Below the pieces are notes generated by a model. It had not been told where the DNA came from. It saw nothing but the letters and a program-made list of their open reading frames with translations, and did no database searches. Shown in pieces: positions 31,046 through 64,000 of a stretch of DNA of 64,000 bases. The stretch lies in IMG/VR virus record IMGVR_UViG_3300028653_000011. The stretch is one strand, 5' to 3'. The translations under genes and the position numbers were made by a program. The DNA comes from a virus (lineage: Duplodnaviria; Heunggongvirae; Uroviricota; Caudoviricetes). Each line of letters starts with the position of its first letter. Position 1 is the stretch's first letter.

Positions 31046-31079
31046 GTGGCGGTGTAAAACGCCCGGTTGTGGGCTTACA

Positions 31080-33786: not shown

Positions 33787-33806
33787 CGTGAATGATAGGT
33801 TAAGAC

Positions 33807-41892: not shown

Positions 41893-42183
41893 TTACAGCA
41901 CGCACCATGAACGATTGCGATCATTGTCATCGAGGAGTAATTCGTGCACTCGTTCCTCGAACAATGCTAACACTGACCAAGTCATCTCATTGATGAAACC
42001 TCGACGTTGTTGATGTTGACACGAGATGATCAAACCCACGGTATACATCGGTGTCAACCATGGATCACGGTTTAGATCAATGCGCCTAGTCACGGTCTTA
42101 AGTAGTGAACCGGGCTGCATCTGATCAGAGTGTAATCCACGTAGGAAGGATGTACTGTGATTGAGATGGAATTGATGTCTCAA
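41893..42183 (-). CDS. PGD-family-like small protein
   Basis: MQPGSLLKTV ... YTVGLIISCQ. Confidence 0.35.
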   Translation of the reverse strand: MRHQFHLNHSTSFLRGLHSDQMQPGSLLKTVTRRIDLNRDPWLTPMYTVGLIISCQHQQRRGFINEMTWSVLALFEERVHELLLDDNDRNRSWCVL

Positions 42184-42912: not shown

Positions 42913-43179
42913 ATGAGGCTCACCCTACGTCGTCTACGACGATTGATACGAGAATTCGGTGTTGACGACACACTACGGAATGATGCTGGCTTCTTCATGG
43001 CAGGCGGCCTGAGTTCAGCGCACCGTGACCGTGAGAATACGTTGATGGATCCACCGCCCGGGTTGGGCAGTGACGCAGAAGAGACAGATGACGCAGAGAA
43101 GGATGGAGACATTGAAGACAAATCACAGTTCGCAGTCAGGGTTGACGACAAACGAGGCGGGCCGGGACGATCGGCTTGA
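42913..43179 (+). CDS. leader-family small protein
   Basis: MRLTLRRLRRLIREFG N-terminus, acidic C-terminus. Confidence 0.45.
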   Translation: MRLTLRRLRRLIREFGVDDTLRNDAGFFMAGGLSSAHRDRENTLMDPPPGLGSDAEETDDAEKDGDIEDKSQFAVRVDDKRGGPGRSA

Positions 43180-43180
43180 A

Positions 43181-43375
43181 ATGCAGGGTAAGGTCGAAGA
43201 GTGCATGCCGGGCACGCTGTTCCGGGTGCGCTGCGACAACGGGCACCTCGTCCTGTGTACCTTGAGCGGCAAGTTGAGGCAGAACCGCATCAGAATACTG
43301 GCCGGTGACGCGGTGACGTGCGAGTGCAGTCCGTATGATGTCTCGAGGGGTCGCATCACCTGGAGACGTACGTAA
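43181..43375 (+). CDS. infA: translation initiation factor IF-1 (bacterial type, S1-like fold)
   Basis: MQGKVEECMPGTLFRVRCDNGHLVLCTLSGKLRQNRIRILAGDAVTCECSPYDVSRGRITWR is collinear with E. coli IF1. An in-frame N-terminal extension to 43070 is possible. Confidence 0.85.
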   Translation: MQGKVEECMPGTLFRVRCDNGHLVLCTLSGKLRQNRIRILAGDAVTCECSPYDVSRGRITWRRT

Positions 43376-45266: not shown

Positions 45267-46052
45267 TCAATACGTGTAGACGTCATCGCCGATCGGGAAC
45301 AGTTTACGTTCAAAGCGTGACTCGCCACTGTGAACGGCACGCGCCTTGACGCTGACCAACCTCTCATCGGGCAGCACATAGGCCCACAGCTCGCCGCCAA
45401 AGCAACAACCACCGTCGAGGCCCACCGCTTTCGGGGTGATCAATGGCCTATTGAGGACGCTGTGACCGAAGAAGATGCGCTCAGGCCCGTCCCAAAAGTG
45501 GTGCCAAAAGCGCCAACCTTCGTTGGGAGGAATGCGACTCGGCCACATCGACTTGTCGTTGATCCTCATCTGACCATCGGCACCAAAGTCGTAGGGACAG
45601 ATGCACTGTATGTGGGTCAAGTGACGCACGGACTGGCGTTCGATGGGCACCCCTGGGAAGACGCCGGCATGGACGGCGACGGCGTTGAACTCTGGTAGAC
45701 GCAGGTACAGTGGCAACCGCCTGAAGTAGTCGTAGTGCTCGGGACGGAGCTGTGACCGGGTGACGACGTGAGACGGGGGTAGCTGACTCGGCAGCTTACC
45801 AGTGCGTGCCAGTACGTCTTCATGATCGAGGTGCCGGTGTTCATGGTTGCCCAGGATGCAGGCGGGTTTGCCTTGTCGCGCTTCGATCCGCATCGCCAGG
45901 TCAACGCACTTGCCGCTCTCGGGACCTCGGTCGACGGTATCACCGAGGAAGATGACCCAGTCTTCAGGACGCGCCTTGCACTTGTCGAGCAGTTCTTGTT
46001 GTTCTGCATAACAACCTTGAACATCACCCACTAGAATTGTGCGCATTGCCAT
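45267..46052 (-). CDS. metallophosphoesterase (PPP family; ApaH / lambda-phosphatase-like)
   Basis: GDVQGC, LGDTVDRGP, GNHE motifs. Confidence 0.8.
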   Translation of the reverse strand: MAMRTILVGDVQGCYAEQQELLDKCKARPEDWVIFLGDTVDRGPESGKCVDLAMRIEARQGKPACILGNHEHRHLDHEDVLARTGKLPSQLPPSHVVTRSQLRPEHYDYFRRLPLYLRLPEFNAVAVHAGVFPGVPIERQSVRHLTHIQCICPYDFGADGQMRINDKSMWPSRIPPNEGWRFWHHFWDGPERIFFGHSVLNRPLITPKAVGLDGGCCFGGELWAYVLPDERLVSVKARAVHSGESRFERKLFPIGDDVYTY

Positions 46053-46894
46053 TTGAACCCATATGCTGTTTCTTTTTCACCAGTCAAACACGCCTTAATT
46101 GTATCTTTATGGGCACCAATACCCAGCTCTTTTAGAGCTAACACAGCGTGTTTAATTGATGAAAAGGTGGCGACGATATTGCCATTTAATGATAATTGAT
46201 CAACTGCAATCCATGATGATTTCGTTTTCACTTTTGGAACATGAACGTCATCACCCGCCACTCTCCAATAAAAACCATGACTCAACATTACATGACCTAT
46301 TTTAACAGGAATCACTCGTTGGGTGGCTTTTGTTAATCCTTGTTCACTTAACCATATTTGTACTGCGCTTCGAGAATCGTGTAATTCTAAAAACTGTCCA
46401 TCAGTTGACCAACGTTCAATGCGTACTTTTTGTTGATTAGCACCTTGAGATCTATTTTGAATTTCTTCATCAGTGTACGGTGCTTTACGCCAACCAACGT
46501 GACTTCTATATTTATGTGCTTGACGAATTTTCTCATTTGTTTCAGGCGTTGGTTTCTTATGCGTTTGTGGCTTTCTCGTATAGAAGTCTTGTCCACCTAC
46601 AGTAAGATTGTAACCATATCCACCCATTCTGATGTTAGTATTTAATTTTGCGATCCAATAACGTTCACGATCATTGAGTTGTTCATCAGAACATTCTTCA
46701 ATGACTTCATATTTGAAATTTTCAAATCCATGTTTGATTAACGCACCCAAAATTGGTCTGCCCAATTTATTGTACTTTTTATGATGCGTTGCACCGTATT
46801 TGTAATTGCGCCAATGTATTTCTGGATCGACTTTTGATTGACCAACATACAGCTTATCATTGAGAATATTAAGAATCTTATAAATGTGACTCAT
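46031..46894 (-). CDS. GIY-YIG homing endonuclease
   Basis: IYKILNILNDKLYVGQS ... ERYWIAKLNT ... YN. The basic C-terminal half is a probable DNA-binding region. Confidence 0.85.
   Translation of the reverse strand: MSHIYKILNILNDKLYVGQSKVDPEIHWRNYKYGATHHKKYNKLGRPILGALIKHGFENFKYEVIEECSDEQLNDRERYWIAKLNTNIRMGGYGYNLTVGGQDFYTRKPQTHKKPTPETNEKIRQAHKYRSHVGWRKAPYTDEEIQNRSQGANQQKVRIERWSTDGQFLELHDSRSAVQIWLSEQGLTKATQRVIPVKIGHVMLSHGFYWRVAGDDVHVPKVKTKSSWIAVDQLSLNGNIVATFSSIKHAVLALKELGIGAHKDTIKACLTGEKETAYGFKWQCAQF
46031..46894 (-). mobile_element. free-standing homing-endonuclease gene in a low-GC island
   Basis: Marked drop in GC (~40% by eye) confined to this ORF, against ~60% flanks. Confidence 0.6.
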
Positions 46895-46911
46895 TCTACC
46901 TTTAATATACT

Positions 46912-47202
46912 CTAGTTGACGTCATACTTCGATGCAGGCCAAGCCACGTCCTTGGCGACATCGATGCCCCGTGACGAATTGTCGGCGTAGGTAGGATCGA
47001 AGATCAGCACCTTGAGTGACTTAGGTAGTTCGGGACGTGCACTCACCGCGTACGTCGCTGCGATGGCCACGGGAGGTAGTTGCGGTGGCGCTTCGGGCGA
47101 TGCATCCGCGAAATTACCGATGAATTGGGCCAACTTCGGAAAGTCAGCGAGGTACAACCAGACCTGAAGCTTGTCGATGATTCGTCTTAGCATGGAATCC
47201 AT
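46912..47202 (-). CDS. hypothetical protein
   Basis: 96-aa ORF. Confidence 0.4.
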   Translation of the reverse strand: MDSMLRRIIDKLQVWLYLADFPKLAQFIGNFADASPEAPPQLPPVAIAATYAVSARPELPKSLKVLIFDPTYADNSSRGIDVAKDVAWPASKYDVN

Positions 47203-47325
47203 TGTACTCTGGCACTGCCCACAGTATTATCTGACCATGAGTGATGCAGTCGTCTATGTTGGCCTACCCGTGTTGCTGGGGTTGGCGATCCTCATCGACA
47301 GGATCCGCGACGGCAAGAGGAAACG

Positions 47326-47580
47326 ATGAAACGACCCAAGACGATTGAGGAACGCACGGCACTGGCGTATACGTGGTGGGACTTGTCGAACGCGCTGTGG
47401 CTCGCCTTCGCGTGGACGGTATTGGTCGGCTTGTTGCTAGTCTGCGTGGCGTTCGGCGTGGGTCTGACATTGGGCGAACGTACCGGGCGCTACAACCAAC
47501 GGTGCCTCGCCGCCGGGGGTGAAGTGCTAGCCACTGGCGCCTGTGGTCACATCACCTATGTCAAGGTTGGCACGCCGTGA
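47326..47580 (+). CDS. small membrane protein
   Basis: TM WLAFAWTVLVGLLLVCVAFGVGL. 84 aa. Confidence 0.4.
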   Translation: MKRPKTIEERTALAYTWWDLSNALWLAFAWTVLVGLLLVCVAFGVGLTLGERTGRYNQRCLAAGGEVLATGACGHITYVKVGTP

Positions 47581-47807
47581 AGATGTCGGAGCTGCGCCGC
47601 CTCAAGGCCGAAGTCGATGAGGTCATCGTGCTTCGCGACAACCTGCAGGCAGTGCAGGCCCGTTGCACCGAACTGCTCAATGCCTACCGCACCATGCGCT
47701 ACGTACTCGAGGAGTGCGACAGGTGGTTCAGTTGCGGTACCGTCGGTCGGAGCGGTGCTATCCTGCATGACAAAGTCAAGCAAGCACTATCGGAGCCCAA
47801 TCGATGA
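47577..47807 (+). CDS. small hypothetical protein
   Basis: GTGA-coupled. 76 aa. Confidence 0.4.
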   Translation: MKMSELRRLKAEVDEVIVLRDNLQAVQARCTELLNAYRTMRYVLEECDRWFSCGTVGRSGAILHDKVKQALSEPNR

Positions 47808-47926
47808 TCGTCGTCATCGCCGCGATGCTGTCAGGCATTCCCCTCATCACCTTTTGCATCCTCATCGTGGTCGACATGATCGATCAGTGGCGCGCAAAGA
47901 AACAACGTGCGCGCAAGGCTAAGTGA
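47804..47926 (+). CDS. 40-aa TM micro-protein
   Basis: ATGA overlap. MIVVIAAMLSGIPLITFCILIVVDMIDQWRAKKQRARKAK. Confidence 0.3.
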   Translation: MIVVIAAMLSGIPLITFCILIVVDMIDQWRAKKQRARKAK

Positions 47927-48067
47927 GTGGGTCAAGGCGCTGGCGCTGCGCCTGAGGTGCAGCTTGGGCTGGCACGACTACGAACTGTTATTCGATCTCG
48001 ACACCGACAGTGATGATGCTTTCGGTGAACTGTGGCACTGCAAACACTGTGAAAAGGAAGCACCAAC

Positions 48068-54816: not shown

Positions 54817-55199
54817 GGCACTTTCTTCAGGTCAGCTGCCCACATATAGCCAACCTCGCCACCGAGGAGTACGAGCACCAAGCCCAGATTGGCTCCATTC
54901 CATGGAGCACCTAACCCGCATCGGGAAATGACGAAGATCAACCTCCCGTCGATTGGTACGGACCTCACACAATCACCCAAGATGAATGCATCTTCGCCTA
55001 GGTCCTGGTTGGTGTCGGGATCACGTAGTCGGACACGTTCAATGCTCGGGCTAAAGGCTCCAGGTTGGCCGCGCGACCCCATCGTCACCCAATCACCGTG
55101 ATCAAATTGAGTGCGGAGGGTGTACATCGGTTCTTCACGATTGTAAGGCCCATGACGTGGGCCTTTGCTACGGTACATGACGACTTGGGACGGCATCAC
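54813..55199 (-). CDS. PGD-family-like protein (array 1, member 9, divergent)
   Basis: ILGDCVRSVPIDG ... LIFVISR ... LGLVLVLLGGEVGYMW. Confidence 0.4.
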   Translation of the reverse strand: MMPSQVVMYRSKGPRHGPYNREEPMYTLRTQFDHGDWVTMGSRGQPGAFSPSIERVRLRDPDTNQDLGEDAFILGDCVRSVPIDGRLIFVISRCGLGAPWNGANLGLVLVLLGGEVGYMWAADLKKVP

Positions 55200-55519
55200 C
55201 GCGATCCTAGGCGATCATCCCACCAACCGTCGTTGTACGAGCCACCGTCGGGCCCGCCGGGCCGCATCGAACCCGGCGTGATGCCATGGCCACAGTCGGT
55301 GAAGCGGTGCAGGCGTTCCCACTGGTTGCCGTTGTTGACGAAGACGCCGACGACGACGCAGTCCTGCCCGTGGAGCGAGAACTCGGCCTCAACGCGCAGG
55401 GTGACGTTGGCACCCGTCGCGCGGGGCGGGTCGGGCGGAGCAGGCGCCGGCGTACGTACGAGAAAGCTGGCGAGTACAATTCCAGCTAAGCCCAGGCCAC
55501 TGATCCACAGCCCGTGCAT
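55196..55519 (-). CDS. membrane-anchored beta-rich protein
   Basis: Internal ATG at 55519. Signal-anchor LWISGLGLAGIVLASFLV. The upstream R-rich extension looks spurious. Confidence 0.4.
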   Translation of the reverse strand: MHGLWISGLGLAGIVLASFLVRTPAPAPPDPPRATGANVTLRVEAEFSLHGQDCVVVGVFVNNGNQWERLHRFTDCGHGITPGSMRPGGPDGGSYNDGWWDDRLGSR

Positions 55520-55634
55520 GATGGTGTTGTATGCCTTCACTTTGACACCTCTCTCCGCAACCCCCACCCGCGTACCACGCACGTGAAGATGAGGCTTCCG
55601 ACCACGGCGGGCGCCAGTGTTGCCAACCACGGGA

Positions 55635-55922
55635 TCACGCGGGCACCATGGGAGGCGGGGGCGACGTCGGACAGGTGTTCGGGTTCGACGCCTCGCACAG
55701 TACATCGCGCTCGGGCAGGGTGTACTCCGTCGTCACCTCATCCCAAGTGTCCTCGGGCACCAATTCTTGGCCCGTCGGAGTGGTGACGATCGACAGCATG
55801 TCACTGTCTATGTCAATGTCGACCGACGATGGTAGCTTACCACGCACGCTCCTGAAGGGTTCATCGAGCTGATTGATGTCAACCATCGGCGTCTCCTCGG
55901 GTGCGGGGTACCAAGTATTCAT
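55635..55922 (-). CDS. acidic hypothetical protein
   Basis: 95 aa, D/E-rich. Confidence 0.35.
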   Translation of the reverse strand: MNTWYPAPEETPMVDINQLDEPFRSVRGKLPSSVDIDIDSDMLSIVTTPTGQELVPEDTWDEVTTEYTLPERDVLCEASNPNTCPTSPPPPMVPA

Positions 55923-56118
55923 CGAGGCTGACGCCGTCCTTCAATGCCCACACGATGCAGTTCGGGCAGGCCTCAATGACCTTGCTGGTGGCGTAGAAGG
56001 TGATGGCGCGGGCAGCGTCCTTGAAGACGAAGTCTTTCGTCTCGATGTCACGGCCACAATAGGCACGACCGCTATAGCGTTGAATGCAGGCCTGCGGCGT
56101 CTTGTGAGGTGTGGTCAT
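55879..56118 (-). CDS. small Cys-containing protein
   Basis: C..C ... CPNC. 79 aa. Confidence 0.35.
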   Translation of the reverse strand: MTTPHKTPQACIQRYSGRAYCGRDIETKDFVFKDAARAITFYATSKVIEACPNCIVWALKDGVSLDEYLVPRTRGDADG

Positions 56119-56405
56119 GTGACAGCCGCCGACCGATTGCGCAGCGCCTCGAGCTCCCCTAGGTCATATGACCCGGTGTTATCGACGTCGGTGTCGCGGA
56201 CTGTCACCGCCGCATGCTCGGCAGTTGGGTGCGCCTGCATGAAGAGCCGTGCTGCCTCGCGGCGTCCATCGCGGACTTGGTTGGTCAGCAGCTTGCTCAG
56301 CGATTGTGCCAGCGGCTCGCCGTTGGTGTCCAGCGACATCGGATCGACGCCGGCTTGAAACAACCAGAGGTGGCTCATGGCCAGGTGACGGCGTTCAGCG
56401 CTCAT
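56115..56405 (-). CDS. small protein, SHLW paralog 1
   Basis: GGAGG 8 nt upstream. RRHLAMSHLWLFQAGVD, paralogous to 57596-57868. Confidence 0.4.
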   Translation of the reverse strand: MSAERRHLAMSHLWLFQAGVDPMSLDTNGEPLAQSLSKLLTNQVRDGRREAARLFMQAHPTAEHAAVTVRDTDVDNTGSYDLGELEALRNRSAAVT

Positions 56406-56658
56406 CGGAGACCTCCGGGTCTGCATTGGTGTCGTCATCGACGCCATCGTTGGTGTGGTGGCGCTGCTCCTTGCGGGGGTATTCGCCGTTCTCGTCGGGC
56501 AGTTGAAACTTGATGTAGGTCGGTGCGCTGTCGGCACCCTCTTCGGGGATGTTGGAGACGCAGATGACCTTGATCGGGCCCATGTTGAAGGAGAAACTCA
56601 ACGTCTCGGTACCCCGACGCGTCGGCCTGATGACATTGTTGACAACGATCTGTTTCAT
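56395..56658 (-). CDS. small hypothetical protein
   Basis: 87 aa with acidic C-terminus. Confidence 0.35.
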   Translation of the reverse strand: MKQIVVNNVIRPTRRGTETLSFSFNMGPIKVICVSNIPEEGADSAPTYIKFQLPDENGEYPRKEQRHHTNDGVDDDTNADPEVSDER

Positions 56659-57191
56659 GTTGCACGTCCTTTCTTGGCGGCCTTTTCGGCCTCAATCACT
56701 GCCTTGGGTCGATTTTTGGTGCCCTTCGGGCGCCCTTTTCCTCGTTTGCCGGGTTGTGGCACAGTTGGCTGCACCTTCACTTCGGTGACGATGAAGGGAC
56801 TGCCCTTCGCCGGCGCCAACTTGAAGCACGCCAGTCCGTCCTTGAACGAGGCCCACCGTGCCCGCGGCGACCTGAAGTCGGAGTCCTCATCGTACAGCGA
56901 CACCATGCCGGTGTCATCATCGATCGACCTGACGCGGCCGACGATCGTCTCCAACCACGGCAGGCCCTTCAACAGGGAGGTGCGGGTGTCGACGACGATG
57001 CGATCACCGACGTCGAACAGGACGACTGACGAGCCGTCGCCTAACACGGCGATGCCGTCCTTCAGGTGCTCGATGGGAGGGCGCTTCGACTGCCAGCGCT
57101 GGTGGCGTTCGGCGCGGGATAGACCCACGTCGGCATCGGGTTTTGAATCGTCAGCATCGCCGAGCGACCCTGACACAGGGGTCTCATTCAT
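56655..57191 (-). CDS. AT-hook DNA-binding protein
   Basis: C-terminus PQPGKRGKGRPKGTKNRPK. AAGGAG SD. Conserved promoter-like element just upstream. Confidence 0.5.
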   Translation of the reverse strand: MNETPVSGSLGDADDSKPDADVGLSRAERHQRWQSKRPPIEHLKDGIAVLGDGSSVVLFDVGDRIVVDTRTSLLKGLPWLETIVGRVRSIDDDTGMVSLYDEDSDFRSPRARWASFKDGLACFKLAPAKGSPFIVTEVKVQPTVPQPGKRGKGRPKGTKNRPKAVIEAEKAAKKGRAT

Positions 57192-57222
57192 TGCAATCTC
57201 CTTCGCAGCAGTTCCAACCTAT

Positions 57223-57258
57223 GATCTAACTGTACCACGGACGTGACCGAACTTACAC
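57223..57258 (-). promoter_or_regulatory. bipartite promoter-like element, copy 1 (GTGTAAG-N17-TACAGTTAGATC), reading leftwards
   Basis: Minus-strand sequence GTGTAAG ttcggtcacgtccgtgg TACAGTTAGATC, about 30 nt upstream of the SD of gene 56655-57191. Confidence 0.4.
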
Positions 57259-57444
57259 CCAGGAGTTGACGAGCGAACGTTCGAAGTGAGTCAGCATCCA
57301 CGTAGCATCCAGCACCTTGACCAAGTTGGCAGGGTCTTTCACCCCGTATGCTTGCCTCTTGACGCCATTGGGGAGCGTGAACTCGACCCGGTTGGTCGTG
57401 GGATCAATGACGGTAAAAGTTGTCGTTGCTGCTCTCTTCACCAT
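57253..57444 (-). CDS. small hypothetical protein
   Basis: 63 aa. Its ATG directly abuts copy 2 of the promoter-like element. Confidence 0.4.
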   Translation of the reverse strand: MVKRAATTTFTVIDPTTNRVEFTLPNGVKRQAYGVKDPANLVKVLDATWMLTHFERSLVNSWV

Positions 57445-57480
57445 GATCTAACTCTACCACGGTTCACCAGGGACTTACAC
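57445..57480 (-). promoter_or_regulatory. bipartite promoter-like element, copy 2 (GTGTAAG-N17-TAGAGTTAGATC), with upstream palindrome
   Basis: Minus strand GTGTAAG tccctggtgaaccgtgg TAGAGTTAGATC then ATG. Adjacent palindrome GAATTATAC-TCGAG-GTGTAATTC at 57488-57510. Confidence 0.45.
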
Positions 57481-57595
57481 CGTCCACGAATTATACTCGA
57501 GGTGTAATTCCTCGGGCCGCCCATGTGGGCGAGGTATGATACCCCGTCCCAGCACCCGTGACGACACGGTGGGCGGTCTGTGGGTGGTGGTTCCG

Positions 57596-57868
57596 TCACC
57601 AGGTGGGCCTGGCATACTGTCGGGTGGGCATGTCATCCCAGTCGTCCGGGGCACCCACGGGATGCGTGGTCGAACGTGACAGGACGTCACGGGAGACGCT
57701 TGGTGCGTTCCTGACGGCGTCTCTTCGCGCATCGTCGAGGAGGATCGCCAGTGAACCCGCGATGGCGGTGACTTCGGCCTCTGACTTGCCGTCATCGAGG
57801 CCCGTCTGGTAGATCCACAGGTGGGACAGCGCAAGGGTGCGAACATCGTGACGATTGTTCTTCATCAT
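57596..57868 (-). CDS. small protein, SHLW paralog 2
   Basis: MMKNNRHDVRTLALSHLWIYQTGLDD. A degenerate copy of the promoter element lies at 57869-57905. Confidence 0.4.
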   Translation of the reverse strand: MMKNNRHDVRTLALSHLWIYQTGLDDGKSEAEVTAIAGSLAILLDDARRDAVRNAPSVSRDVLSRSTTHPVGAPDDWDDMPTRQYARPTW

Positions 57869-57934
57869 GAATGTACAGTACCACACTTGACCACGGCGCT
57901 TGCACTCTGCGCGGGAGGGTGGTACAATTGAAGC

Positions 57935-58126
57935 ATGAGAACCACGTTGATCACATTCGTGGCACTCGTCATCACGTGTGTCATCGTCTCGTATGCCTGT
58001 GTCTACTCGCCGCCCAATTCCCTGCCCAACGGACACTCGCGGTGCGAGTACAACGCTGATTGTAGGCCACCCCAACAGTGTGACAGGGGCCTGTGTACCC
58101 TCGAACCCCATGACGTGGGGCGCTGA
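57935..58126 (+). CDS. small secreted Cys-rich protein
   Basis: Signal-anchor ITFVALVITCVIVSYA plus 6 Cys. GTGGTACAATTGAAGC (plus-orientation -10-like copy) immediately upstream. Confidence 0.4.
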   Translation: MRTTLITFVALVITCVIVSYACVYSPPNSLPNGHSRCEYNADCRPPQQCDRGLCTLEPHDVGR

Positions 58127-58517
58127 TCACGTGCGCTCACTGAAGTGCGGGGGCGTTGACGTCTACGTAGACAGCTATTACACCCGTGGCACAGGCAGCA
58201 CCTTCATCGGTGGTAACTTCTCGCTCGACAGTGCGATTGACTATGCTCGCCGCTCGCTTGAACTCCTATGGGGACCCAATCGTCACAGCGTCGTGGTGCC
58301 GCCCAAGGTGACAGCAGGCGGGCGCATTCCACAGCGCACGTTGATGATGTGGCTGCACTCCGACGAGCGGCCCATGGAACACCCAGGCGACGATGGATCA
58401 CACCTGTTCCTCATCTGGTTTGCTGACGATGATCCCATCGATGCACTGCAGGACGCGGTGCGGCACCTCGATGGCATGGGTGGCTGGTGGCCACACGCGA
58501 AGGGTTACGTGCTATGA
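58110..58517 (+). CDS. hypothetical protein
   Basis: Internal ATG of track ORF 57978-58517, overlapping the upstream stop. 135 aa. Confidence 0.4.
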   Translation: MTWGADHVRSLKCGGVDVYVDSYYTRGTGSTFIGGNFSLDSAIDYARRSLELLWGPNRHSVVVPPKVTAGGRIPQRTLMMWLHSDERPMEHPGDDGSHLFLIWFADDDPIDALQDAVRHLDGMGGWWPHAKGYVL

Positions 58518-58708
58518 GCACCGGCGATAGGTTGAGACAACTGGCGATGGCGTGGCGCAAACAAGTGGCTAGCGATGCGTTGAGTCACGTGGGTAGCAAT
58601 AGCGAGATCCGCCGGGCGAGGGGCGAACGCCTGCTGATGTGCGCAGGCGAACTTGAGGCGCTGGCGAGAGAAGTCGACAAGGCAGTCACGTCAACCGATT
58701 GCTCCTGA
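58514..58708 (+). CDS. small hypothetical protein
   Basis: ATGA-coupled. 64 aa. Confidence 0.3.
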   Translation: MSTGDRLRQLAMAWRKQVASDALSHVGSNSEIRRARGERLLMCAGELEALAREVDKAVTSTDCS

Positions 58709-58961
58709 TGTAGCAGGTGCGGCCTACACACACGATCTGGCAATACGAGTGGTGTACCCCCGACATGGTGATGACTGCCAACACTAGCGCTAGTTCACCA
58801 TTGCACCACACGCTGCGCGCCACGACTCCCGCGCCGTATCCTACAGTATAGAACGGAAACGGGCGGGTGTAGCCCCAGCCCTTGGCCACGTACAGTTCCC
58901 CGGGTTTGCGGATCAAGTCAACGTCAGGGGTATTGAGTTCAGTGGGCATGCACGTCCTCAA
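58686..58961 (-). CDS. PGD-family small protein (array 2, member 1)
   Basis: RKPGELYVAKGWGY ... GVVARSV ... LALVLAVI. Confidence 0.4.
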   Translation of the reverse strand: MRTCMPTELNTPDVDLIRKPGELYVAKGWGYTRPFPFYTVGYGAGVVARSVWCNGELALVLAVITMSGVHHSYCQIVCVGRTCYIRSNRLT

Positions 58962-59247
58962 AGAATTGGTGATAGCCCCAACCCAGCTTGCCTGTCGGTG
59001 TCAACACCAACACCTCGAGCGTGCCATTGGAGTTCACCGCGACGGCGACAGCTAACACCACTTTGAGTGGCTCTATGCGATCGATGATTGGGTTGGCACT
59101 GAGTGCAGAGATGCCTATGCGCGCGCTGACGTTGACATAAGAGTCCTGATCAGGCAACCTGCTGCGTATGCGAACCAGCATGCCTGGGAGAATGCGGCCA
59201 TGCGGCGCCATCACCTCACCAACCACTTCAACACCCCGATGTACCAT
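58939..59247 (-). CDS. PGD-family small protein (array 2, member 2)
   Basis: Internal ATG. ILPGMLVRIRS ... VVLAVAVAV ... VLVLTPTGKLGWGY. Confidence 0.45.
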   Translation of the reverse strand: MVHRGVEVVGEVMAPHGRILPGMLVRIRSRLPDQDSYVNVSARIGISALSANPIIDRIEPLKVVLAVAVAVNSNGTLEVLVLTPTGKLGWGYHQFFEDVHAH

Positions 59248-59516
59248 GCTTGGCGAAAGTCGCAGGTCCAGTACCAGTAGGGGCTGGTGCACCCGCCGCC
59301 CAAGTATTCTCGACCGTGACCCATAATTTTGCCGCGCCCGTCCTTGACCCATGACTCATTGCTGGTGAGGGTGCGGTCACATGCCGGGCACGTCAATTCT
59401 GTGTTGATGAAGTACGTCATCTCTGCACCGTGCGCACGTTCTTGCTCCATACCCAACCCAGCGTGTTCTTCGACGTCAAGATCAACACTTCTTCCGGCGG
59501 GATGCGAGGCTGACAA
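59211..59516 (-). CDS. small Cys-rich protein (zinc-ribbon-like)
   Basis: CPACDRT ... GGGCTSPYWYWTCD. 101 aa. Confidence 0.35.
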   Translation of the reverse strand: MSASHPAGRSVDLDVEEHAGLGMEQERAHGAEMTYFINTELTCPACDRTLTSNESWVKDGRGKIMGHGREYLGGGCTSPYWYWTCDFRQAWYIGVLKWLVR

Positions 59517-59683
59517 ACGTTGATGACGAGCGCGATGTCACTTGCGTGCAGGAAGCCGACGCCAAGATTGTCCTCCGTTCGCATGCCCGGATACTGCGTC
59601 ATGCAACACCGATAGTCGTAGTCATACCCAACCAGCAGGGTGACGAGTGAGCCGGGCGTGATCACGGGCGGTGAAGGTTGCAC
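59417..59683 (-). CDS. PGD-family small protein (array 2, member 3)
   Basis: ITPGSLVTLLVG ... ALVINVCQ ... LILTSKNTLGWVW. Confidence 0.5.
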   Translation of the reverse strand: MQPSPPVITPGSLVTLLVGYDYDYRCCMTQYPGMRTEDNLGVGFLHASDIALVINVCQPRIPPEEVLILTSKNTLGWVWSKNVRTVQR

Positions 59684-59976
59684 TGATCACGGGGAATGTC
59701 GCAGTTGCAATTGCCGGGAGCGACGCGCCGCCTGAACAGCTTCCAGATGCGCTCCTCCTCGTGATCGACCTGTGGTTCACCCACCACGACGGCGAGCTCA
59801 ACGTTCTCAATTGGTTCACCATCGATGATTTCAAAGCGATTGCGATTCCAATACCCAGGCACGTCGACGAGCGTGTAGACGCGCGTGGCACCATCATCTT
59901 CGAGGACGCTGTAGACGTGACCCTCGGTCAGCTTGTCGGAGGCCAACCCACTGACATCAATGCACTTGACCTTCAT
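59662..59976 (-). CDS. small hypothetical protein (possibly a distant family member)
   Basis: 104 aa. HVYSVLEDDG ... VYTLVDVPGYW. Confidence 0.35.
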   Translation of the reverse strand: MKVKCIDVSGLASDKLTEGHVYSVLEDDGATRVYTLVDVPGYWNRNRFEIIDGEPIENVELAVVVGEPQVDHEEERIWKLFRRRVAPGNCNCDIPRDQCNLHRP

Positions 59977-60013
59977 GGTTCAATCCTATGCCAATTGCAG
60001 GGCACTTTGCACC

Positions 60014-60292
60014 TCACACCGGACACAACTTGCGCGCATCGATCCACCCCAAGATCCCACCCACCATGACCAGCGTTTCAGGACGCCATGCTACGTCTGG
60101 CTCAACGTAGATGATGAAGGCAACATCGATGTCTGGTAACATTTCGTAGAGAACAGGATTGTCGCCGTGAACCACGCCCCTTTTCGGAGTGACGCGTTTG
60201 ATGCCCTCCGTTCGGCTAGTGACAAAGGTGCCGGGCACAAGGCGAGTAGTGCTCATTTCGACACCACGTTGAGCCATGATTGACTCATCCAA
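60014..60292 (-). CDS. PGD-family small protein (array 2, member 5)
   Basis: LVPGTFVTSRT ... AFIIYVEPD ... LVMVGGILGWI. Confidence 0.5.
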   Translation of the reverse strand: MDESIMAQRGVEMSTTRLVPGTFVTSRTEGIKRVTPKRGVVHGDNPVLYEMLPDIDVAFIIYVEPDVAWRPETLVMVGGILGWIDARKLCPV

Positions 60293-60546
60293 CCTACCCT
60301 GTTCAACGCTGACACGTAGACGATGACCTCGAGAGTATATGAGTCCGACGCACCTAGAATGAGCACCAACGAGCCGAGCGCGATCGCCGTGGGGATGTTA
60401 CCGTAATCACTGTCACTGATCGTGCCACGTGGCCACAACTGACACCACACGCGCGTCACTGCTAGTTGGCCGATCAACGCGACGGATACAGTGTTCACCG
60501 GCGCTCCAAGTGCTCGACGCGTTGAATCACCGACGTGTAGATCCAA
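60253..60546 (-). CDS. PGD-family small protein (array 2, member 6)
   Basis: ALGSLVLILGAS ... EVIVYVSALNRVGWM. Confidence 0.45.
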   Translation of the reverse strand: MDLHVGDSTRRALGAPVNTVSVALIGQLAVTRVWCQLWPRGTISDSDYGNIPTAIALGSLVLILGASDSYTLEVIVYVSALNRVGWMSQSWLNVVSK

Positions 60547-60752
60547 CCCACCGCGCTAGTTAGTGACTCAATGACCTGTGCCCGTCGGTCGCCGCCGGTA
60601 TCGAACGTAATCGCAATGACAAGACCAAAGTTGAAGTCACACAGGCGTCGTCTATGTCCCATATCACCATAGACGCCCGGACGCCAAGAAGACGCGTGAA
60701 GTGATGTCGGGTACCAGATCAGGTCACCAGGATGGAAAATGCGGGTCACCAC
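60495..60752 (-). CDS. PGD-family small protein (array 2, member 7)
   Basis: FHPGDLIWYPTS ... GLVIAITFD ... VIESLTSAVGWIY. Confidence 0.5.
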   Translation of the reverse strand: MVTRIFHPGDLIWYPTSLHASSWRPGVYGDMGHRRRLCDFNFGLVIAITFDTGGDRRAQVIESLTSAVGWIYTSVIQRVEHLERR

Positions 60753-60756
60753 AATC

Positions 60757-61074
60757 TTATCCTACACCGACAACTATTTCGGTTACACCGTGCCAGTGGG
60801 TGCCACGTCCCATCACCTCTTCACTGATTTCGTGAATGTACAGACGACCGCGCATTAATAGGATCAATTCGATTACGTCGTCGGACCGCAATCTTCGCCT
60901 GCTGATGATCATGGCAAGGGTGTCTGCGTTGAACACCGTGAACCTGCCCAGCGTGAAGTGATTGAGAGGTCGATTATCAACGAGTCGTGCATGCATCATC
61001 GTCAGGGAAGTGATGAGGTCACCCGGTTCAAACTTCATGGGGTGATCACCTTGATGAAGGTGCTGTTGATCCAA
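60757..61074 (-). CDS. PGD-family small protein (array 2, member 8)
   Basis: FEPGDLITSLTMM ... LAMIISRR ... ELILLMRGRLYI. Confidence 0.5.
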   Translation of the reverse strand: MDQQHLHQGDHPMKFEPGDLITSLTMMHARLVDNRPLNHFTLGRFTVFNADTLAMIISRRRLRSDDVIELILLMRGRLYIHEISEEVMGRGTHWHGVTEIVVGVG

Positions 61075-61340
61075 CCCATGCCCTGCGCGGTGACGATGAA
61101 GACATAATGTCCCATCACCGTCGCCATAACTGTGCTAGCGACGATTCCGACGTAGAGCGAATCAATGTACGTGTAATGACTGTCGTACACGTGGCCGGAT
61201 ACATCCGTATGAACGATGATGCACACGTCGCCCGGATAGTATGCGTGTCCCATGATGCGCGGGGGCAGTGCCGTCCACGAATAACCTGGGTGCCTGAAGG
61301 TCACCAGCGCGCCCGGTGTGGCCTGAGCGGGGGTGATCAT
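61035..61340 (-). CDS. PGD-family small protein (array 2, member 9)
   Basis: Internal ATG with ATGA overlap. ATPGALVTFRHPG ... VCIIVHTD ... FIVTAQGMGWI. Confidence 0.45.
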   Translation of the reverse strand: MITPAQATPGALVTFRHPGYSWTALPPRIMGHAYYPGDVCIIVHTDVSGHVYDSHYTYIDSLYVGIVASTVMATVMGHYVFIVTAQGMGWINSTFIKVITP

Positions 61341-61609
61341 GCGCGCACCAGGTCGGTGGGAAACACCCACCCCACGCGATGGCCGAGCAAGACACAGATC
61401 CATTGAGTGCCTGGTGAAAAGATGTGGGATACGTCCTTCACGTAATTGATGACGAGGCACCGTTTACCACGGCGATACCATCGGAGGCCACTACTATTTT
61501 CCCCGGGATGAGTGATCCTGACTGCAACATCCTCGCCGTGTCGCCGCGCGTGCGACGACCCATGGAGGCAACACAGCGTCCCGGGCAGGAATTGCTCCTC
61601 ATGGGTCAT
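61337..61609 (-). CDS. PGD-family small protein (array 2, member 10)
   Basis: FLPGTLCCLHGS ... CLVINYVKD ... ICVLLGHRVGWVF. Confidence 0.5.
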   Translation of the reverse strand: MTHEEQFLPGTLCCLHGSSHARRHGEDVAVRITHPGENSSGLRWYRRGKRCLVINYVKDVSHIFSPGTQWICVLLGHRVGWVFPTDLVRA

Positions 61610-61662
61610 CGAGTTCTTTTCATCCTATCACACCATGGCGTCGACTTGCACGGTACACTCAA

Positions 61663-61938
61663 TCAGAGCGGTTCCAGGTCAGTAAGAAAGACCCAACCCA
61701 GCGAGGCATCGGCAAATAACAAGCAGACCCATCTCGTGGATGACAGGCCAAACCGCCAACTGTTGATGACCAGACACACCACGCCAGCAGCATACCAGAC
61801 GACGACGCGTTCCATCGGCAGGCCTTGGTGGGTGCCCAGATCGGGGTGCACGATCCGAACGGCAATCTTGTCACCATAGTCTCTTCGGAGGCACGCTAGT
61901 GTGCCGGGCAGCAACTTCTCCTCGTTGGTCATTGTCAT
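61663..61938 (-). CDS. PGD-family small protein (array 2, member 11; close paralog of member 10)
   Basis: Internal ATG with ATGA overlap. LLPGTLACLRRD ... CLVINSWRF ... VCLLFADASLGWVF. Confidence 0.5.
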   Translation of the reverse strand: MTMTNEEKLLPGTLACLRRDYGDKIAVRIVHPDLGTHQGLPMERVVVWYAAGVVCLVINSWRFGLSSTRWVCLLFADASLGWVFLTDLEPL

Positions 61939-62150
61939 CTGTTTTCGAGGAAGTACACTGAAACCCAAACCAAGCGCTCCGCGTGCAGGACGAGAACATA
62001 GTCCAGGAGGGCGTCCCATTGCTGAACAATGAGGCACGCGTCACCTGCCTCGTGTGCGTGTCCCAGCGCCAACGTCTTGCGATCTTTCCACCCAATCCAC
62101 GCGTGCATGAAGACTGCCAGCATTCCGGGAATGACGTCATGCGGCGTCAT
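61935..62150 (-). CDS. PGD-family small protein (array 2, member 12)
   Basis: VIPGMLAVFMHA ... ACLIVQQWD ... LVLHAERLVWV. Confidence 0.5.
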   Translation of the reverse strand: MTPHDVIPGMLAVFMHAWIGWKDRKTLALGHAHEAGDACLIVQQWDALLDYVLVLHAERLVWVSVYFLENR

Positions 62151-62422
62151 GCCAACACCAAGTCACTGTCGAAGATCCACCCAACAATGCCGTCTGACGT
62201 TAGCACACAGATCCACCAGATGTTGGCTGACCACACGTAGTCAATGATCAAACCAGCAGTGCCACACCGGGCATATATCACCAGTGATGGTACCTCATCT
62301 TTGGGGTGCCTAGTGCGGATGCTGACCGTTACCAACTTCCTCTTATTGTAGAGAAAGATCAACGTCCCACGTGCATGGATCGTAGGCTGCACAAAGGGTG
62401 CTGGGGTTGGTGTGGAGATCAT
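62147..62422 (-). CDS. PGD-family small protein (array 2, member 13)
   Basis: ARGTLIFLYNK ... GLIIDYVWS ... ICVLTSDGIVGWIF. Confidence 0.5.
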   Translation of the reverse strand: MISTPTPAPFVQPTIHARGTLIFLYNKRKLVTVSIRTRHPKDEVPSLVIYARCGTAGLIIDYVWSANIWWICVLTSDGIVGWIFDSDLVLA

Positions 62423-62694
62423 GGAACATCACTCGTCTTCGCTATGCGAACGGCGCGGAAGATCGCTCCGATCACGTGGCTGCCTTCGAGCGCGCGAGAT
62501 AACCCATTACAGTTCAACCACGTCAGGATGCCTTCGGCGCGGGCGACCAACAGGTTAACGCCACCGATGAGCACGAAGCGATGCTCGACGGATGACCATA
62601 TCTCTTCATGCGTGACAACCTCATTGCCGTTACGGGTGTACACCCACTTGATGAGGTCGCCGGGCTTCAATTCACTCGGCGTCATCAGGTGCAA
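62419..62694 (-). CDS. PGD-family small protein (array 2, member 14)
   Basis: LKPGDLIKWVYT ... FVLIGGVN ... GILTWLN. Confidence 0.5.
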   Translation of the reverse strand: MHLMTPSELKPGDLIKWVYTRNGNEVVTHEEIWSSVEHRFVLIGGVNLLVARAEGILTWLNCNGLSRALEGSHVIGAIFRAVRIAKTSDVP

Positions 62695-63463
62695 CCCAAT
62701 CCTGACCCTTGGTGAATGAACCGCGGTTCTCGATGCCCGTCTTGGTCAAGGCGACGACGAACGTTTTCCCGCTACAACCCCACCTGTTCTTGCTGACCTC
62801 GAACAACAGGCCCCCAAACGTCGGGCTCTTCTTGTTCTCGTCGTACGACAGGTGGGCATGGACGTCGATGGCGTGGCGGATGGTGTTCTTGCCCGCGAAT
62901 TCTCCACCCTTGGTACATTGTCCCACGAAGATGCAGAAGGCGAAGTTCTGCTGGCACCAGGCGACCAACATCTCAGTGCAGCGCACCGGGGTGTTGCCCG
63001 TCGTCCCACCGTCCTTGTACTTCATGTCGTTCAACGTCTGCAGTGAATCTTGCAGTAGGACGATGACCTTGCCCGGGTTGGCCTTCTTGACGCCGTCGAG
63101 GAACTTCAACAGCTTAGGCAGGTTAGTCTCCTCGGCGACCATGAAGTCGTGCTTCAACTGCAACCGTTCAACGGCCAGCTTGGCCTGAAACAGGCTCTCT
63201 TCGCCCGTGTTGTAGACGACGATGTGACCCGCACCCGTCAGCGTCGACGCCAACTGGCGCACCAGCGTTGACTTGCCGGTGCCCGGGCCACCCGTCAGCA
63301 TCAGCGTCGTCGTCGCGGTGAAGCCACCTTCGCCGCCCAACGCCTCGTCGATCCAATCGAGGCCCGTCGAGTGCTTGACCCGCAGTTCGGGTGGCACCGC
63401 GATGGTGCTGATCTTCGTCCCAGCCTTGAAACCACGCCCAACGTGCAGATTCATCTCGGCCAT
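62672..63463 (-). CDS. RecA-superfamily ATPase (RadA/Sms- or Sak4-like)
   Basis: GLDWIDEALGGEGGF ... LMLTGGPGTGKSTL (Walker A), with a Walker B-like hydrophobic stretch ending in D. Confidence 0.6.
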   Translation of the reverse strand: MAEMNLHVGRGFKAGTKISTIAVPPELRVKHSTGLDWIDEALGGEGGFTATTTLMLTGGPGTGKSTLVRQLASTLTGAGHIVVYNTGEESLFQAKLAVERLQLKHDFMVAEETNLPKLLKFLDGVKKANPGKVIVLLQDSLQTLNDMKYKDGGTTGNTPVRCTEMLVAWCQQNFAFCIFVGQCTKGGEFAGKNTIRHAIDVHAHLSYDENKKSPTFGGLLFEVSKNRWGCSGKTFVVALTKTGIENRGSFTKGQDWVAPDDAE

Positions 63464-63487
63464 TGTCTCGGCATCTCCGTCGGTTGA

Positions 63488-63523
63488 GATCTAACTCTAC
63501 CAGGTTCGTGGTGGAACTTGCAC
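63488..63523 (-). promoter_or_regulatory. bipartite promoter-like element, copy 3
   Basis: Minus strand GTGCAAG ttccaccacgaacctgg TAGAGTTAGATC, 24 nt upstream of the RecA-like ATG. Confidence 0.4.
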
Positions 63524-63525
63524 TA

Positions 63526-63639
63526 TCACCGAGCCAGGATGAACATGCCCAGTGCGACCCACGAGGCGCCACAGACGACGAGGGCAGCGCTCCAGAACAT
63601 CACCATCTCGGCCCGACTTGCCTTTGCTTCCTTCATCAT
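63526..63639 (-). CDS. 37-aa TM micro-protein
   Basis: MMKEAKASRAEMVMFWSAALVVCGASWVALGMFILAR. Its ATG abuts promoter-element copy 4. Confidence 0.3.
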   Translation of the reverse strand: MMKEAKASRAEMVMFWSAALVVCGASWVALGMFILAR

Positions 63640-63675
63640 GATCTAATCCTACCACGGTCGCCGGCGAACTTGCAC
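63640..63675 (-). promoter_or_regulatory. bipartite promoter-like element, copy 4, with upstream palindrome
   Basis: Minus strand GTGCAAG ttcgccggcgaccgtgg TAGGATTAGATC. Palindrome GAATTATAC-CCCGGG-TGTAATCC at 63683-63705. Confidence 0.4.
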
Positions 63676-63849
63676 TGTCCCCGAATTATACCCCGGGTGT
63701 AATCCTAGCCTGCCTGTCCCGGGACACCCCCGGACCCACCCAGGTGCGGCCCGACGGCCCACAGGACGGCCCAGGTCACCTTGCCACGGGCGGGAGGCAG
63801 TTCCACCCCTTCGATTATTGTGGGTGCCCGGTGACAAGGCACGTGGACG

Positions 63850-63885
63850 GTGTAAGTCCCCGGTGAATCGTGGTAGAGTTAGATC
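63850..63885 (+). promoter_or_regulatory. bipartite promoter-like element, copy 5, plus orientation (strand switch)
   Basis: Plus strand GTGTAAG tccccggtgaatcgtgg TAGAGTTAGATC, immediately followed by ATG 63886. Near-identical inverted copy of the 57445-57480 element. Confidence 0.45.
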
Positions 63886-64000
63886 ATGGTAGCAAATAGG
63901 TCTCGCCTCAACGTGCCCATCCACAGTGCTCGCAAGTTCAGGTGGAGCAACGATTTCACCGGCAGTGCCGAGGTGTCTGACTTCAGCCGAACAATCAGCT
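63886..64000 (+). CDS. 5' end of a plus-strand CDS running off the window
   Basis: ATG at 63886 directly after the promoter-like element. Open to the window end (MVANRSRLNVPIHSARKFRW...). Confidence 0.3.
   Translation, partial: MVANRSRLNVPIHSARKFRWSNDFTGSAEVSDFSRTIS

Follow-up and report, generated by a model that had tools for sequence, protein, structure and literature searches.

Leaderless promoters have been described from Actinomycetota and Deinococcus-Thermus (PMC3898074, PMC12340547, PMC6028130). A -10 element adjoining the open reading frame is a documented signature of leaderless genes (PMC12340547, PMC6028130), and in M. tuberculosis the promoters have TANNNT 7-12 bp before the start, C at -1, a purine at +1, and T at +2, the TGN-extended versions being the stronger ones (PMC3898074). 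The element described here, a bipartite sequence of 36 bp in a 59% G+C setting, shares with these promoters a TAnnnT ending 6 nt before the start codon, the C at -1, the purine at +1, the lack of room for a Shine-Dalgarno sequence, and the TGn extension typical of strong versions. In the host leaderless promoters, however, the -35 region is conserved slightly or not at all and the discriminator is not conserved, whereas in the element an 8-bp box and a 6-nt discriminator are nearly invariant in dozens of copies and between related phages. It is a well-supported case of a known signal type with an unusual upstream box, and very probably represents a family of strong promoters that fire exactly on the ATG of small genes.

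The window, i.e., the whole 64,000-nt stretch of DNA that was analysed, is part of a genome of about 359 kb belonging to an uncultivated phage from peat and rhizosphere metagenomes; the 359-kb contig was assembled independently twice. Five copies are located in the window, four on the minus strand (57223-57258, 57445-57480, 63488-63523, and 63640-63675) and one on the plus strand (63850-63885), just as listed in an earlier note made from the sequence. All match GTGYAAG-N17-TASARTTAGATC with 0-1 mismatch, 0.01 matches being expected from shuffled sequences, and their weight-matrix scores are 39-49 bits, compared with 11.1 bits for the best of 30 simulated 64-kb sequences. With the A of ATG numbered +1, the upstream box GTGYAAGT (in the form GTGCAAGT) occupies positions -36 to -29, a TG lies at -15/-14, the hexamer TAGRRT at -12 to -7, and the 6-nt discriminator TAGATC, with its C at -1, fills the remainder. 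The hexamer of the five copies is TAGAGT, TACAGT, or TAGGAT. The spacers end in CGTGG or CCTGG, as had been noticed, and it is this ending that provides the TG.

The earlier note had placed the element in a local control hub; it is in fact spread over the genome and the clade. About 105 kb of the source genome that were read contain 22 strong copies, among them copies beyond the window edge at about 64186, 64560, 64821, 71150, and 71233 in window numbering. Together with 19 related metagenome contigs the source genome yields 69 unique strong sites; the element was present in 20 metagenome contigs, one of which was the source genome again. Three further sequences (L001, L002, and L021) were rejected as distant relatives, being other regions of the source genome (100% identity). 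The sites are intergenic and every one is oriented toward the next gene. Among related phages the element is kept as a unit, with variable spacer and flanks, and the most distant relative examined (L113) retains the box and TGGTAGGAT and has lost TTAGATC. In a set of 56 sites T-12, A-11, and T-7 are invariant (56/56), which is partly forced by the search pattern. Outside this pattern, T-15 is present in 52 of the 56 sites, G-14 in 54, T-29 in 50, and C-17 in 47, and positions +1 to +3 are A in 55, T in 53, and G in 54. The TG at -15/-14 was included in the pattern of the metagenome scan and absent from those used for the viral contigs and the window.

Set against gene starts, as the earlier note had proposed, 63 of the 69 strong sites have an ATG directly after GATC, opening a short ORF (median 81 aa), and the ATG was no part of the search pattern. 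The distance to the ATG, previously given as 0-38 nt, is 0 nt in three of the window copies, and 24 and 31 nt in the other two. The three directly adjoining copies are 57445-57480 (47.2 bits), in which GATC is followed by ATG 57444 of a 63-aa gene (57253-57444), 63640-63675 (48.9 bits, the TAGGAT variant), after which ATG 63639 opens the gene of a 37-aa membrane peptide (63526-63639; called in L025 and L026), and 63850-63885 (48.8 bits), which in the opposite orientation precedes ATG 63886. Of the two exceptions, the copy at 63488-63523 (48.1 bits) is separated by a 24-nt GGAG leader from ATG 63463 of a KaiC/RadA-like ATPase of 263 aa (62672-63463). The copy at 57223-57258, GTGTAAG-N17-TACAGTTAGATC (39.0 bits), is separated by a 31-nt AAGGAG leader from ATG 57191 of a 178-aa gene (56655-57191), and the TAA stop of the upstream gene falls within its GTGTAAG box.

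The geometry, in which the A of ATG lies 7 nt after T-7, suggests that the polymerase would open the A/T-rich TAGATC discriminator and start on the A of ATG, between C at -1 and T at +2. An mRNA of this kind would have no leader, and the ribosome would have to load straight on the 5' AUG; the element itself is not complementary to a Shine-Dalgarno partner. The two exceptional window copies would be variants starting 24 and 31 nt before genes with their own Shine-Dalgarno sequences. As a whole, the element is best explained, with a probability of roughly 60%, as a family of leaderless promoters of the sigma-70 extended -10 type that is read first by the host polymerase. A holoenzyme with a sigma-70-family factor would bind TAGRRT and the TG at -15/-14 through regions 2 and 3 of sigma, and the GTGYAAGT box would stand in for the -35 element, its reader being either region 4 of the host sigma, binding weakly, or an accessory protein. 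The promoter function proposed in the earlier note thus gains support from the position of the element, its TAGRRT and TG, and its conservation as a unit, although the leaderless design, the non-canonical nature of the -35 box, the genome- and clade-wide spread, and one real gene (described below) had been missed.

Compared with the canonical TTGACA, GTGYAA at 18-bp spacing agrees in three of six positions (T-35, G-34, and A-31) and is not a canonical -35 element; none of the copies was found in a scan with the E. coli-type -10/-35 consensus. A second class, nTGACM-N17/18-TAGRRT, is present in the window in six matches, against 1.25 expected. Five of these six are located 5-6 nt before an ATG: TTGACA-N17-TAGGTT at 33773-33801 (+), 5 nt ahead of ATG 33807, and those ending 6 nt before ATG 3731, 5951, 12209, and, on the minus strand, 45226. 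The invariance of the box, its 3/6 match, the failure of the consensus scan, and the coexistence of a canonical class together suggest a reader other than an ordinary sigma region 4. The near-invariant TTAGATC discriminator, which is untranscribed, is not explained by ordinary sigma contacts either. An inverted repeat in the spacer, AAGTTC-N6-GAACCT, was considered as a general operator and rejected, being present in only 8 of the 69 sites. A role of GATC in Dam methylation was likewise discarded, as GATC occurs at expectation (genome ratio 1.02), neither avoided nor enriched.

Weaker copies were found elsewhere in the window. The intermediate copy GTGAAAA-N17-TAGGATCAGATC at 24640-24675 (+; 21.3 bits), followed by an 18-nt leader and ATG 24694, is the only one in the first 57 kb to exceed the ceiling set by the simulated sequences. 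Relaxed copies on the minus strand are GTGCAAA-N17-TAGGAT at 59983-60012, 6 nt before ATG 59976, GTGTAAC-N17-TAGGAT at 60759-60788, 6 nt before GTG 60752, and GTGCAAG-N17-TAGGAT at 61622-61651, with TGA before the -10 and a 12-nt leader to ATG 61609. On the plus strand GTGTAAA-N17-TACAAT (31052-31081) and GTGTAAT-N16-TACTGT (42130-42158) each lie 7 nt before an ATG, at 31089 and 42166, respectively. Two degenerate copies proposed earlier hold in part: that upstream of nei (29089-29118) has the spacing and TAGAGT but matches the box in only five of seven positions, and the one ahead of 43947 has TAGAGT but no box at the right distance. A third, at 57869-57905 (-), is genuine, with the structure GTGCAAG-N18-TACTGT-ACATTC immediately followed by ATG 57868. 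The gene that begins there (57596-57868, minus strand, 90 aa) lies within the region 57445-57935, in which no convincing ORF had been recognised; it is called in three independent assemblies and has a paralog at 56115-56537 (E 1e-9). Equally genuine is the rightward TGGTACAAT-N6-ATG ahead of 57935, which proved to have a TTGCAC -35 at 17 bp: the promoter TTGCAC-N17-TACAAT, with TGG before the -10, occupies 57899-57934 (+) together with the 6 nt that lead up to ATG 57935. Since this TTGCAC is the complement of the GTGCAAG box, the leftward and rightward promoters share 7 bp back to back.

Both upstream palindromes of the earlier note are present, at 57488-57510 (GAATTATAC-N5-GTGTAATTC) and 63683-63705 (GAATTATAC-N5-GTGTAATCC), two matches against 0.01 expected; their centres lie about 54-55 bp 5' of ATG 57444 and ATG 63639, respectively. 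The palindrome is 23 bp long (9-N5-9), with the consensus AATTAYAC-N5-GTRTAATT. Its centre was found at -54/-55 in five cases, at -65 in two, and at -87 in one, positions that recur and are helically phased relative to the promoter, as expected of an operator. In two relatives (L023 and L007) it is located between divergent promoters, and in more distant relatives a second palindrome family, TTGTTGAAA-N5-TTTCAACAA, occurs at about -52. The idea of a site for a dimeric regulator is strengthened by the recurrence 11 and 33 bp apart and by the placement between back-to-back promoters; the set of positions -54, -65, and -87 suggests a regulator that depends on helical phase. At this subset of promoters the palindrome would lie on one face of the helix and bring a bound dimeric regulator into contact with the polymerase; a palindrome between back-to-back promoters would serve both. 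None of the neighbouring small proteins showed a DNA-binding family. A conserved non-coding module of about 135 nt (63706-63845) travels with the palindrome and promoter; it has an ortholog in L006 and a paralog in the source genome (L001, 8806-8920). Consensus folding of the module on either strand, with few sequences, gave 2-3 compensatory pairs, and a search of Rfam with 57000-64000 and the promoter-proximal non-coding stretch of L001 returned only a chance-level match (CRISPR-DR33, E 0.91).

Compared with the relative L006, the window differs by one inversion, two cassette insertions or deletions, and one cassette replacement, all of them bounded by promoter copies. The copies at 63640-63675 and 63850-63885 form an inverted repeat flanking the segment that is inverted in L006. 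As each small gene has its own near-identical promoter, the copies would double as joints for homologous recombination, through which cassettes would be inverted, inserted, and swapped.

The phage encodes a sigma factor (P0144) with regions 2 and 3, which aligns best with primary sigma factors. Its family, with 65-81% identity within the motif-bearing clade, keeps the primary-sigma regions 1.2, 2, and 3. In three genomes (the source genome, L020, and L113) a promoter of the element class precedes the sigma gene, which suggests that the host polymerase reads the class first, as an early or pre-sigma class; the nearest such promoter is 0.7-1.5 kb upstream, a distance that leaves room for intervening promoters. 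A serious, though clearly less probable, alternative is that the cognate reader of the same promoter is the phage sigma itself, recognising TGnTAGRRT without a -35 contact, while a partner protein reads the box and the host polymerase provides basal activity. The partner for GTGYAAGT could be, e.g., a 91-aa protein encoded just upstream, the stop of its gene overlapping the start of the sigma gene. The co-occurrence of the sigma family and the motif is in its favour, as is the failure of P0144 to match Sigma70_r4 even at an E of 0.05. In the AlphaFold model residue 217 is followed by three helices, sigma region 4 normally having four, and one short helix only stands at the place of the -35-binding helix-turn-helix. 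The C-terminal part of this model, however, has a pLDDT of only 51-69, and the last helix is alignable with the sigma-70 recognition helix by HMMER. The TG, nearly invariant in the element class but seen in just one of the five canonical -35 promoters that adjoin an ATG, also fits a dedicated sigma, which would explain the invariant discriminator more easily; yet a sigma without a helix-turn-helix cannot alone account for the invariant 8-bp box, and the location of its gene behind promoters of the class in three genomes would demand self-starting expression or an injected protein.

The two readings can be combined in a dual-use promoter, a tentative and rather doubtful scheme, at the core of a phage programme of leaderless expression, in which the host polymerase would act first and the clade-specific sigma, devoid of the -35-reading helix-turn-helix, would later take over the same TG-extended promoters. 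Canonical promoters of both host and phage would then be silenced, a new partner would recognise the box and region 1.2 of the phage sigma TTAGATC, and a phage IF1 homolog would aid the loading of 70S ribosomes on the 5' AUG.

Improbable, by comparison, is a middle class in which the host primary sigma binds the -10 and an activator encoded by phage or host binds GTGYAAGT in place of the -35 contact, the canonical -35 promoters being early, as in the middle-promoter logic of T4 (MotA box plus AsiA). The invariant box with its constant spacing to a normal -10 and the canonical class in the same genome would agree with it, and T4 middle promoters (PMC5312081) offer a precedent, but the precomputed Pfam hits of the window proteins include neither MotA nor AsiA nor any other DNA-binding family, and most genes that follow the element are small ORFans, as is more usual in immediate-early regions. 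That the element is not primarily a promoter and serves as a stoperator-like repressor site, a cassette junction or recombination site, or an RNA-level translation signal is very unlikely: the copies are one-directional relative to genes, lie in short intergenic gaps, and coincide with rearrangement breakpoints, but the bipartite structure, in which the spacer varies while TG and TAnnnT occupy exactly -15 to -7 from the ATG, is sigma-specific, a Shine-Dalgarno partner is lacking while two copies have separate GGAG leaders, no terminator-like hairpin accompanies the copies, and GATC is at its expected frequency.

A host proficient in translating leaderless mRNA is indicated by the leaderless design together with the TAGRRT -10 and the G+C content, and Actinomycetota are weakly suggested. 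The motif had no match in 185,579 species genomes and hence gave no prophage or host hit. The phage isocitrate lyase has named protein matches in Thermoleophilia/Gaiellaceae and its best genome match in an Actinomycetes MAG; it was rejected as an indicator of the host, as its homologs, 60-67% identical, are spread over many phyla. No close relative was found among isolated phages: Megablast of 55000-64000 gave no match, and searches with the ATPase and the sigma protein reached at most 39% identity. A literature search for the 12-mers returned only unrelated mouse primers.

For an uncultivated clade of soil, peat, and sediment phages of 300-380 kb the element provides a ready transcription map: each copy would mark a transcription unit and show where a small ORFan gene truly starts, so that gene calls can be corrected. 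The two -35 classes and a phage sigma without a normal region 4 make a polymerase-takeover hypothesis testable in vitro, and the promoter repeats may explain the reshuffling of small-gene arrays in these phages. The 36-bp element with the 23-bp putative operator is also a compact candidate expression part for high-G+C bacteria.

Several phage systems resemble the element in part. In the PeSL cassettes of T4-type phages (PMC2839356, PMC4122927) a near-identical promoter repeat likewise precedes many small variable ORFs, and the joints of insertions, deletions, and replacements between relatives lie at the repeats, as was found here in the comparison with L006. PeSL is, however, a composite of stem-loop terminator and promoter, whereas no terminator-like hairpin was found beside any copy in 56500-64000, and predicted leaderless transcripts and inversion between inverted copies distinguish the element. 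With the T4 middle promoters, composed of a MotA box and a sigma-70 -10, it has in common a conserved box that substitutes for the -35 and keeps a constant distance to an ordinary -10; the box sequence and distance differ, no MotA or AsiA homolog was found, and membership in that class is not claimed. The early promoters read by the virion RNA polymerases of jumbo phages (AR9, AAATATATATTAT-N6-G, and phiKZ; PMC5312081) also occur in large phages in many near-invariant copies, and transcription from them begins at a constant 6 nt past the conserved block. Theirs is a single A/T-rich block recognised by a multisubunit phage polymerase without sigma, in contrast to the bipartite element with its sigma-70-type -10 and TG; AR9 transcripts have leaders of 26-491 nt (PMC5312081), and the precomputed Pfam hits for about 105 kb of the source genome include no RNA polymerase subunit family. 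In the Thermus phage P23-45 (PMC4124052) extended -10 phage promoters are favoured and -10/-35 promoters are shut off. There small proteins displace sigma region 4, whereas the candidate here is a phage sigma without a normal region 4; the dual-use scheme, if true, would be a sigma-replacement version of the Thermus-phage switch by small anti-region-4 proteins. The same shift between promoter classes is reported for phiYS40, another Thermus phage, whose middle and late mRNAs are reportedly leaderless. Compared with the Thermus phage promoters, the element differs in having retained a conserved upstream box.

Sequence evidence, as far as it reaches, supports reading the element as a promoter, and the element would best be filed under a known kind of signal, as a family of leaderless promoters specific to the phage. 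The upstream box and the discriminator of the element are invariant. All five copies reported in the earlier note (57223-57258, 57445-57480, 63488-63523, 63640-63675 and 63850-63885) were recovered with zero or one mismatch to GTGYAAG-N17-TASARTTAGATC, compared with 0.01 matches in shuffles of the window, and they score 39-49 bits with a weight matrix built from all instances of the element, the best of 30 simulated 64-kb sequences reaching 11.1. The strong copies of the window are all confined to 57.2-63.9 kb, the first 57 kb holding one intermediate site (24640-24675). At least five further strong copies, including a back-to-back pair at about 71150-71269 (window numbering), are located in the 10 kb past the window end, and a 20-kb stretch about 40-60 kb past it carries 12 sites above 12 bits on one strand only, 10 of them strong; 11 of these 12 abut an ATG, and the weakest has a Shine-Dalgarno leader. 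A metagenome scan yielded 20 matching contigs from sediment, peat and groundwater samples, many with several copies each; one of them, L021, is the source genome again, and the genuine relatives are among the others. The IMG/VR contig with which the motif was first found (L001, L002, L021) was rejected as a relative, being 100% identical to the source genome. No match to the element was found in 185,579 species genomes.

Three copies are directly followed by an ATG (57444-, 63639- and 63886+), and the other two by leaders of 31 and 24 nt with AAGGAG or GGAG, preceding ATG 57191 and ATG 63463. Counting from the A of the ATG that follows GATC as +1, TAGRRT occupies -12 to -7, TG -15/-14, and the 6-nt discriminator TAGATC leads to C at -1, A at +1 and T at +2. 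Among 56 pooled unique instances, several positions outside the search pattern are also kept: T-29 (50/56), C-17 (47/56), T-15 (52/56) and G-14 (54/56), as well as the A (55/56), T (53/56) and G (54/56) of the ATG right after GATC. At a cut-off of 30 bits, 69 unique sites were obtained, 63 of which abut an ATG opening an ORF (median 81 aa, only one below 30 aa). The earlier note had named the absence of a bias toward gene starts as the outcome that would speak against a promoter; the bias is present, since the strong sites are all intergenic, each directed at the gene behind it. Mapped actinobacterial promoters share this geometry: their TANNNT is found 7-12 bp before the transcription start, the start itself is a purine preceded by C at -1 and followed by T at +2, and TGN-extended promoters are stronger (PMC3898074). 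The layout likewise agrees with the design described for leaderless genes, a -10 adjoining the ORF (PMC12340547, PMC6028130). Eight of the 69 sites, 63488-63523 among them, have an inverted repeat centred around -23, AAGTTC-N6-GAACCT, made up of spacer and box end. The spacer CCCTGCAAYTGGCA is common to a further sub-family: 59983-60012, the copy at about 64560 and the promoter of the sigma operon. At L001 9853-9903, in the source genome, a 14-bp tandem duplication in the spacer (TTCGCCTGCGACCG twice) stretches the box-to-hexamer distance to 31 bp; this copy may be inactivated, or an assembly artefact.

The GTGYAAGT box, at -36 to -29, agrees with TTGACA in no more than three positions, and none of the copies of the element was picked up by a scanner for E. 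coli-type promoters; judged by its sequence, the box is not an ordinary -35. A second class of putative leaderless promoters in the window has canonical boxes, nTGACM-N17/18-TAGRRT, with six matches against 1.25 expected, five of which end 5-6 nt before ATG 3731, 5951, 12209, 33807 and 45226; only one of these five has TG at -15/-14. With the relaxed GTGYAA-class copies at 17960, 31052, 42130, 59983-60012, 60759-60788 and 61622-61651, this class indicates that one -10 element and one start geometry are common to two classes of upstream box.

The main rival reading would make a sigma factor of the phage the dedicated reader of the GTGYAA class. On the related contig L020 is a gene for a 298-aa protein of the sigma-70 family that has regions 2 and 3; the protein's 278-aa ortholog in the source genome, P0144 (78% identical), is encoded about 47 kb past the window end (L110 9726-10837); orthologs of 65-81% identity occur on many 300-380-kb contigs. 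From region 1.2 through region 3 the sequence closely resembles primary sigma factors, and no region 4 model matched even at E 0.05. A single short helix separates the LRLRFGL motif from the conserved C-terminus, GKGLT; in this part the AlphaFold model (pLDDT 51-69) places helices at 217-235, 239-249 and 265-272. Of the relatives examined, the most divergent, with a 65% identical sigma, lacks TTAGATC and keeps the box and TGGTAGGAT. The sigma gene is found downstream of a GTGYAA-class promoter in three genomes, and on this ground the class would come ahead of the sigma in a cascade. A conserved 91-aa ORF, acidic and helical, has a stop overlapping the P0144 gene start, and GGTTGCTCCACGCGCGCGAGGATGATACG occurs in three tandem copies just upstream of the sigma operon promoter (L110 9076-9230).

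Members of the phage-specific promoter family are in places accompanied by a palindrome. Both palindromes reported for the window exist, and AATTAYAC-N5-GTRTAATT was found at seven further places in the source genome and its relatives. The centres lie at -54/-55 (five cases), -65 (two) and -87 (one), in steps of 11 and 22 bp that add up to 33 bp, and twice the palindrome stands between back-to-back promoters (about 71150-71269 in window numbering, and 877-986 of the related contig L007). More distant relatives have a different palindrome, TTGTTGAAA-N5-TTTCAACAA, of the same 9-N5-9 geometry, centred at about -52. This fits sites of a dimeric regulator that would act from one helix face, with a specificity varying by lineage; a family search of the neighbouring small proteins found no palindrome-binding protein. 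A conserved G+C-rich non-coding stretch of about 135 nt (63706-63845, L006 1584-1715, L001 8806-8920), without an Rfam match, is always attached on the palindrome side of the promoter. At L001 8949-9164 some 180 nt devoid of ORFs come after a promoter copy with a palindrome and a TAAGAT variant; they fold better than shuffles (z -2.76) and match neither Rfam nor tRNA models; this is possibly a small RNA.

The 57.2-57.9 kb hub comprises, from left to right, the Shine-Dalgarno-leader promoter of a 178-aa gene, a 63-aa gene, predicted to be leaderless, together with its own promoter and palindrome, an 85-nt spacer and a 90-aa gene. The last, at 57596-57868(-), is among the gene calls of three assemblies and has a paralog, so the earlier description of 57445-57935 as lacking a convincing ORF does not stand. 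The segment 57869-57905 is predicted to be this gene's own degenerate leaderless promoter. A predicted rightward promoter precedes the gene of a 63-aa cysteine-rich membrane peptide starting at 57935; its TTGCAC -35 is the other strand of the GTGCAAG box of the 57869-57905 promoter, and the two promoters thus overlap back to back.

The window proteins are encoded by a 359,3xx-bp contig present in independent assemblies (JGI 3300031240 and ENA ERZ27245402); between about 44000 and 51200 the ENA gene coordinates are shifted by 10 nt, which points to a small indel between assemblies of the same phage. No close isolated phage was found by sequence and protein searches. The window, of 59% G+C, encodes malate synthase and isocitrate lyase, a chaperonin, methionine aminopeptidase, an IF1 homolog, DNA-repair enzymes and lysozyme, and also has extended arrays of small genes that match no family. 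One such array (58686-62694(-)) comprises about 15 tandem genes of 69-104 aa, including four paralogous pairs (BLASTP, E 3e-5 to 7e-18), most members sharing an N-terminal PG-x-L and a C-terminal (L/V)GW(I/V); others are found close to the sigma gene (L110 8600-9100). Malate synthase adjoins isocitrate lyase (12696-15629(+)), giving a complete glyoxylate shunt, behind a predicted leaderless promoter with a canonical -35 (12173-12202); the lyase is 60-67% identical to bacterial enzymes of many phyla, and a metagenomic catalogue lists huge phages with these genes adjacent (bioRxiv 10.1101/2025.02.27.640493). The homolog of translation initiation factor IF1 (43088-43375(+); PF01176, E 1.8e-23) is of interest since many genes of the source genome look leaderless. 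Outside the window, 15 tRNA genes are arrayed at L110 4077-6077, two with odd anticodon loops. At 46001-48000 G+C falls to 0.485, against 0.55-0.62 in the rest of the window; this stretch, adjoining a GIY-YIG gene (46031-46894) and a metallophosphoesterase gene, is possibly a mobile insertion.

The related contig L006 is collinear with the window, its KaiC/RadA-like ATPase gene being 84% identical to that at 62672-63463(-). The segment 63634-63888, whose ends are two inverted promoter copies, is inverted between them; L006 has an additional promoter-plus-gene cassette, the cassette between two promoters at 64227-64589 is replaced, and the one at 64848-65292 is present in the window genome only. 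These differences resemble the promoter-mediated shuffling of T4-type phages (PMC2839356, PMC4122927), although the element, unlike the shuffling promoters of those phages, has no associated stem-loop.
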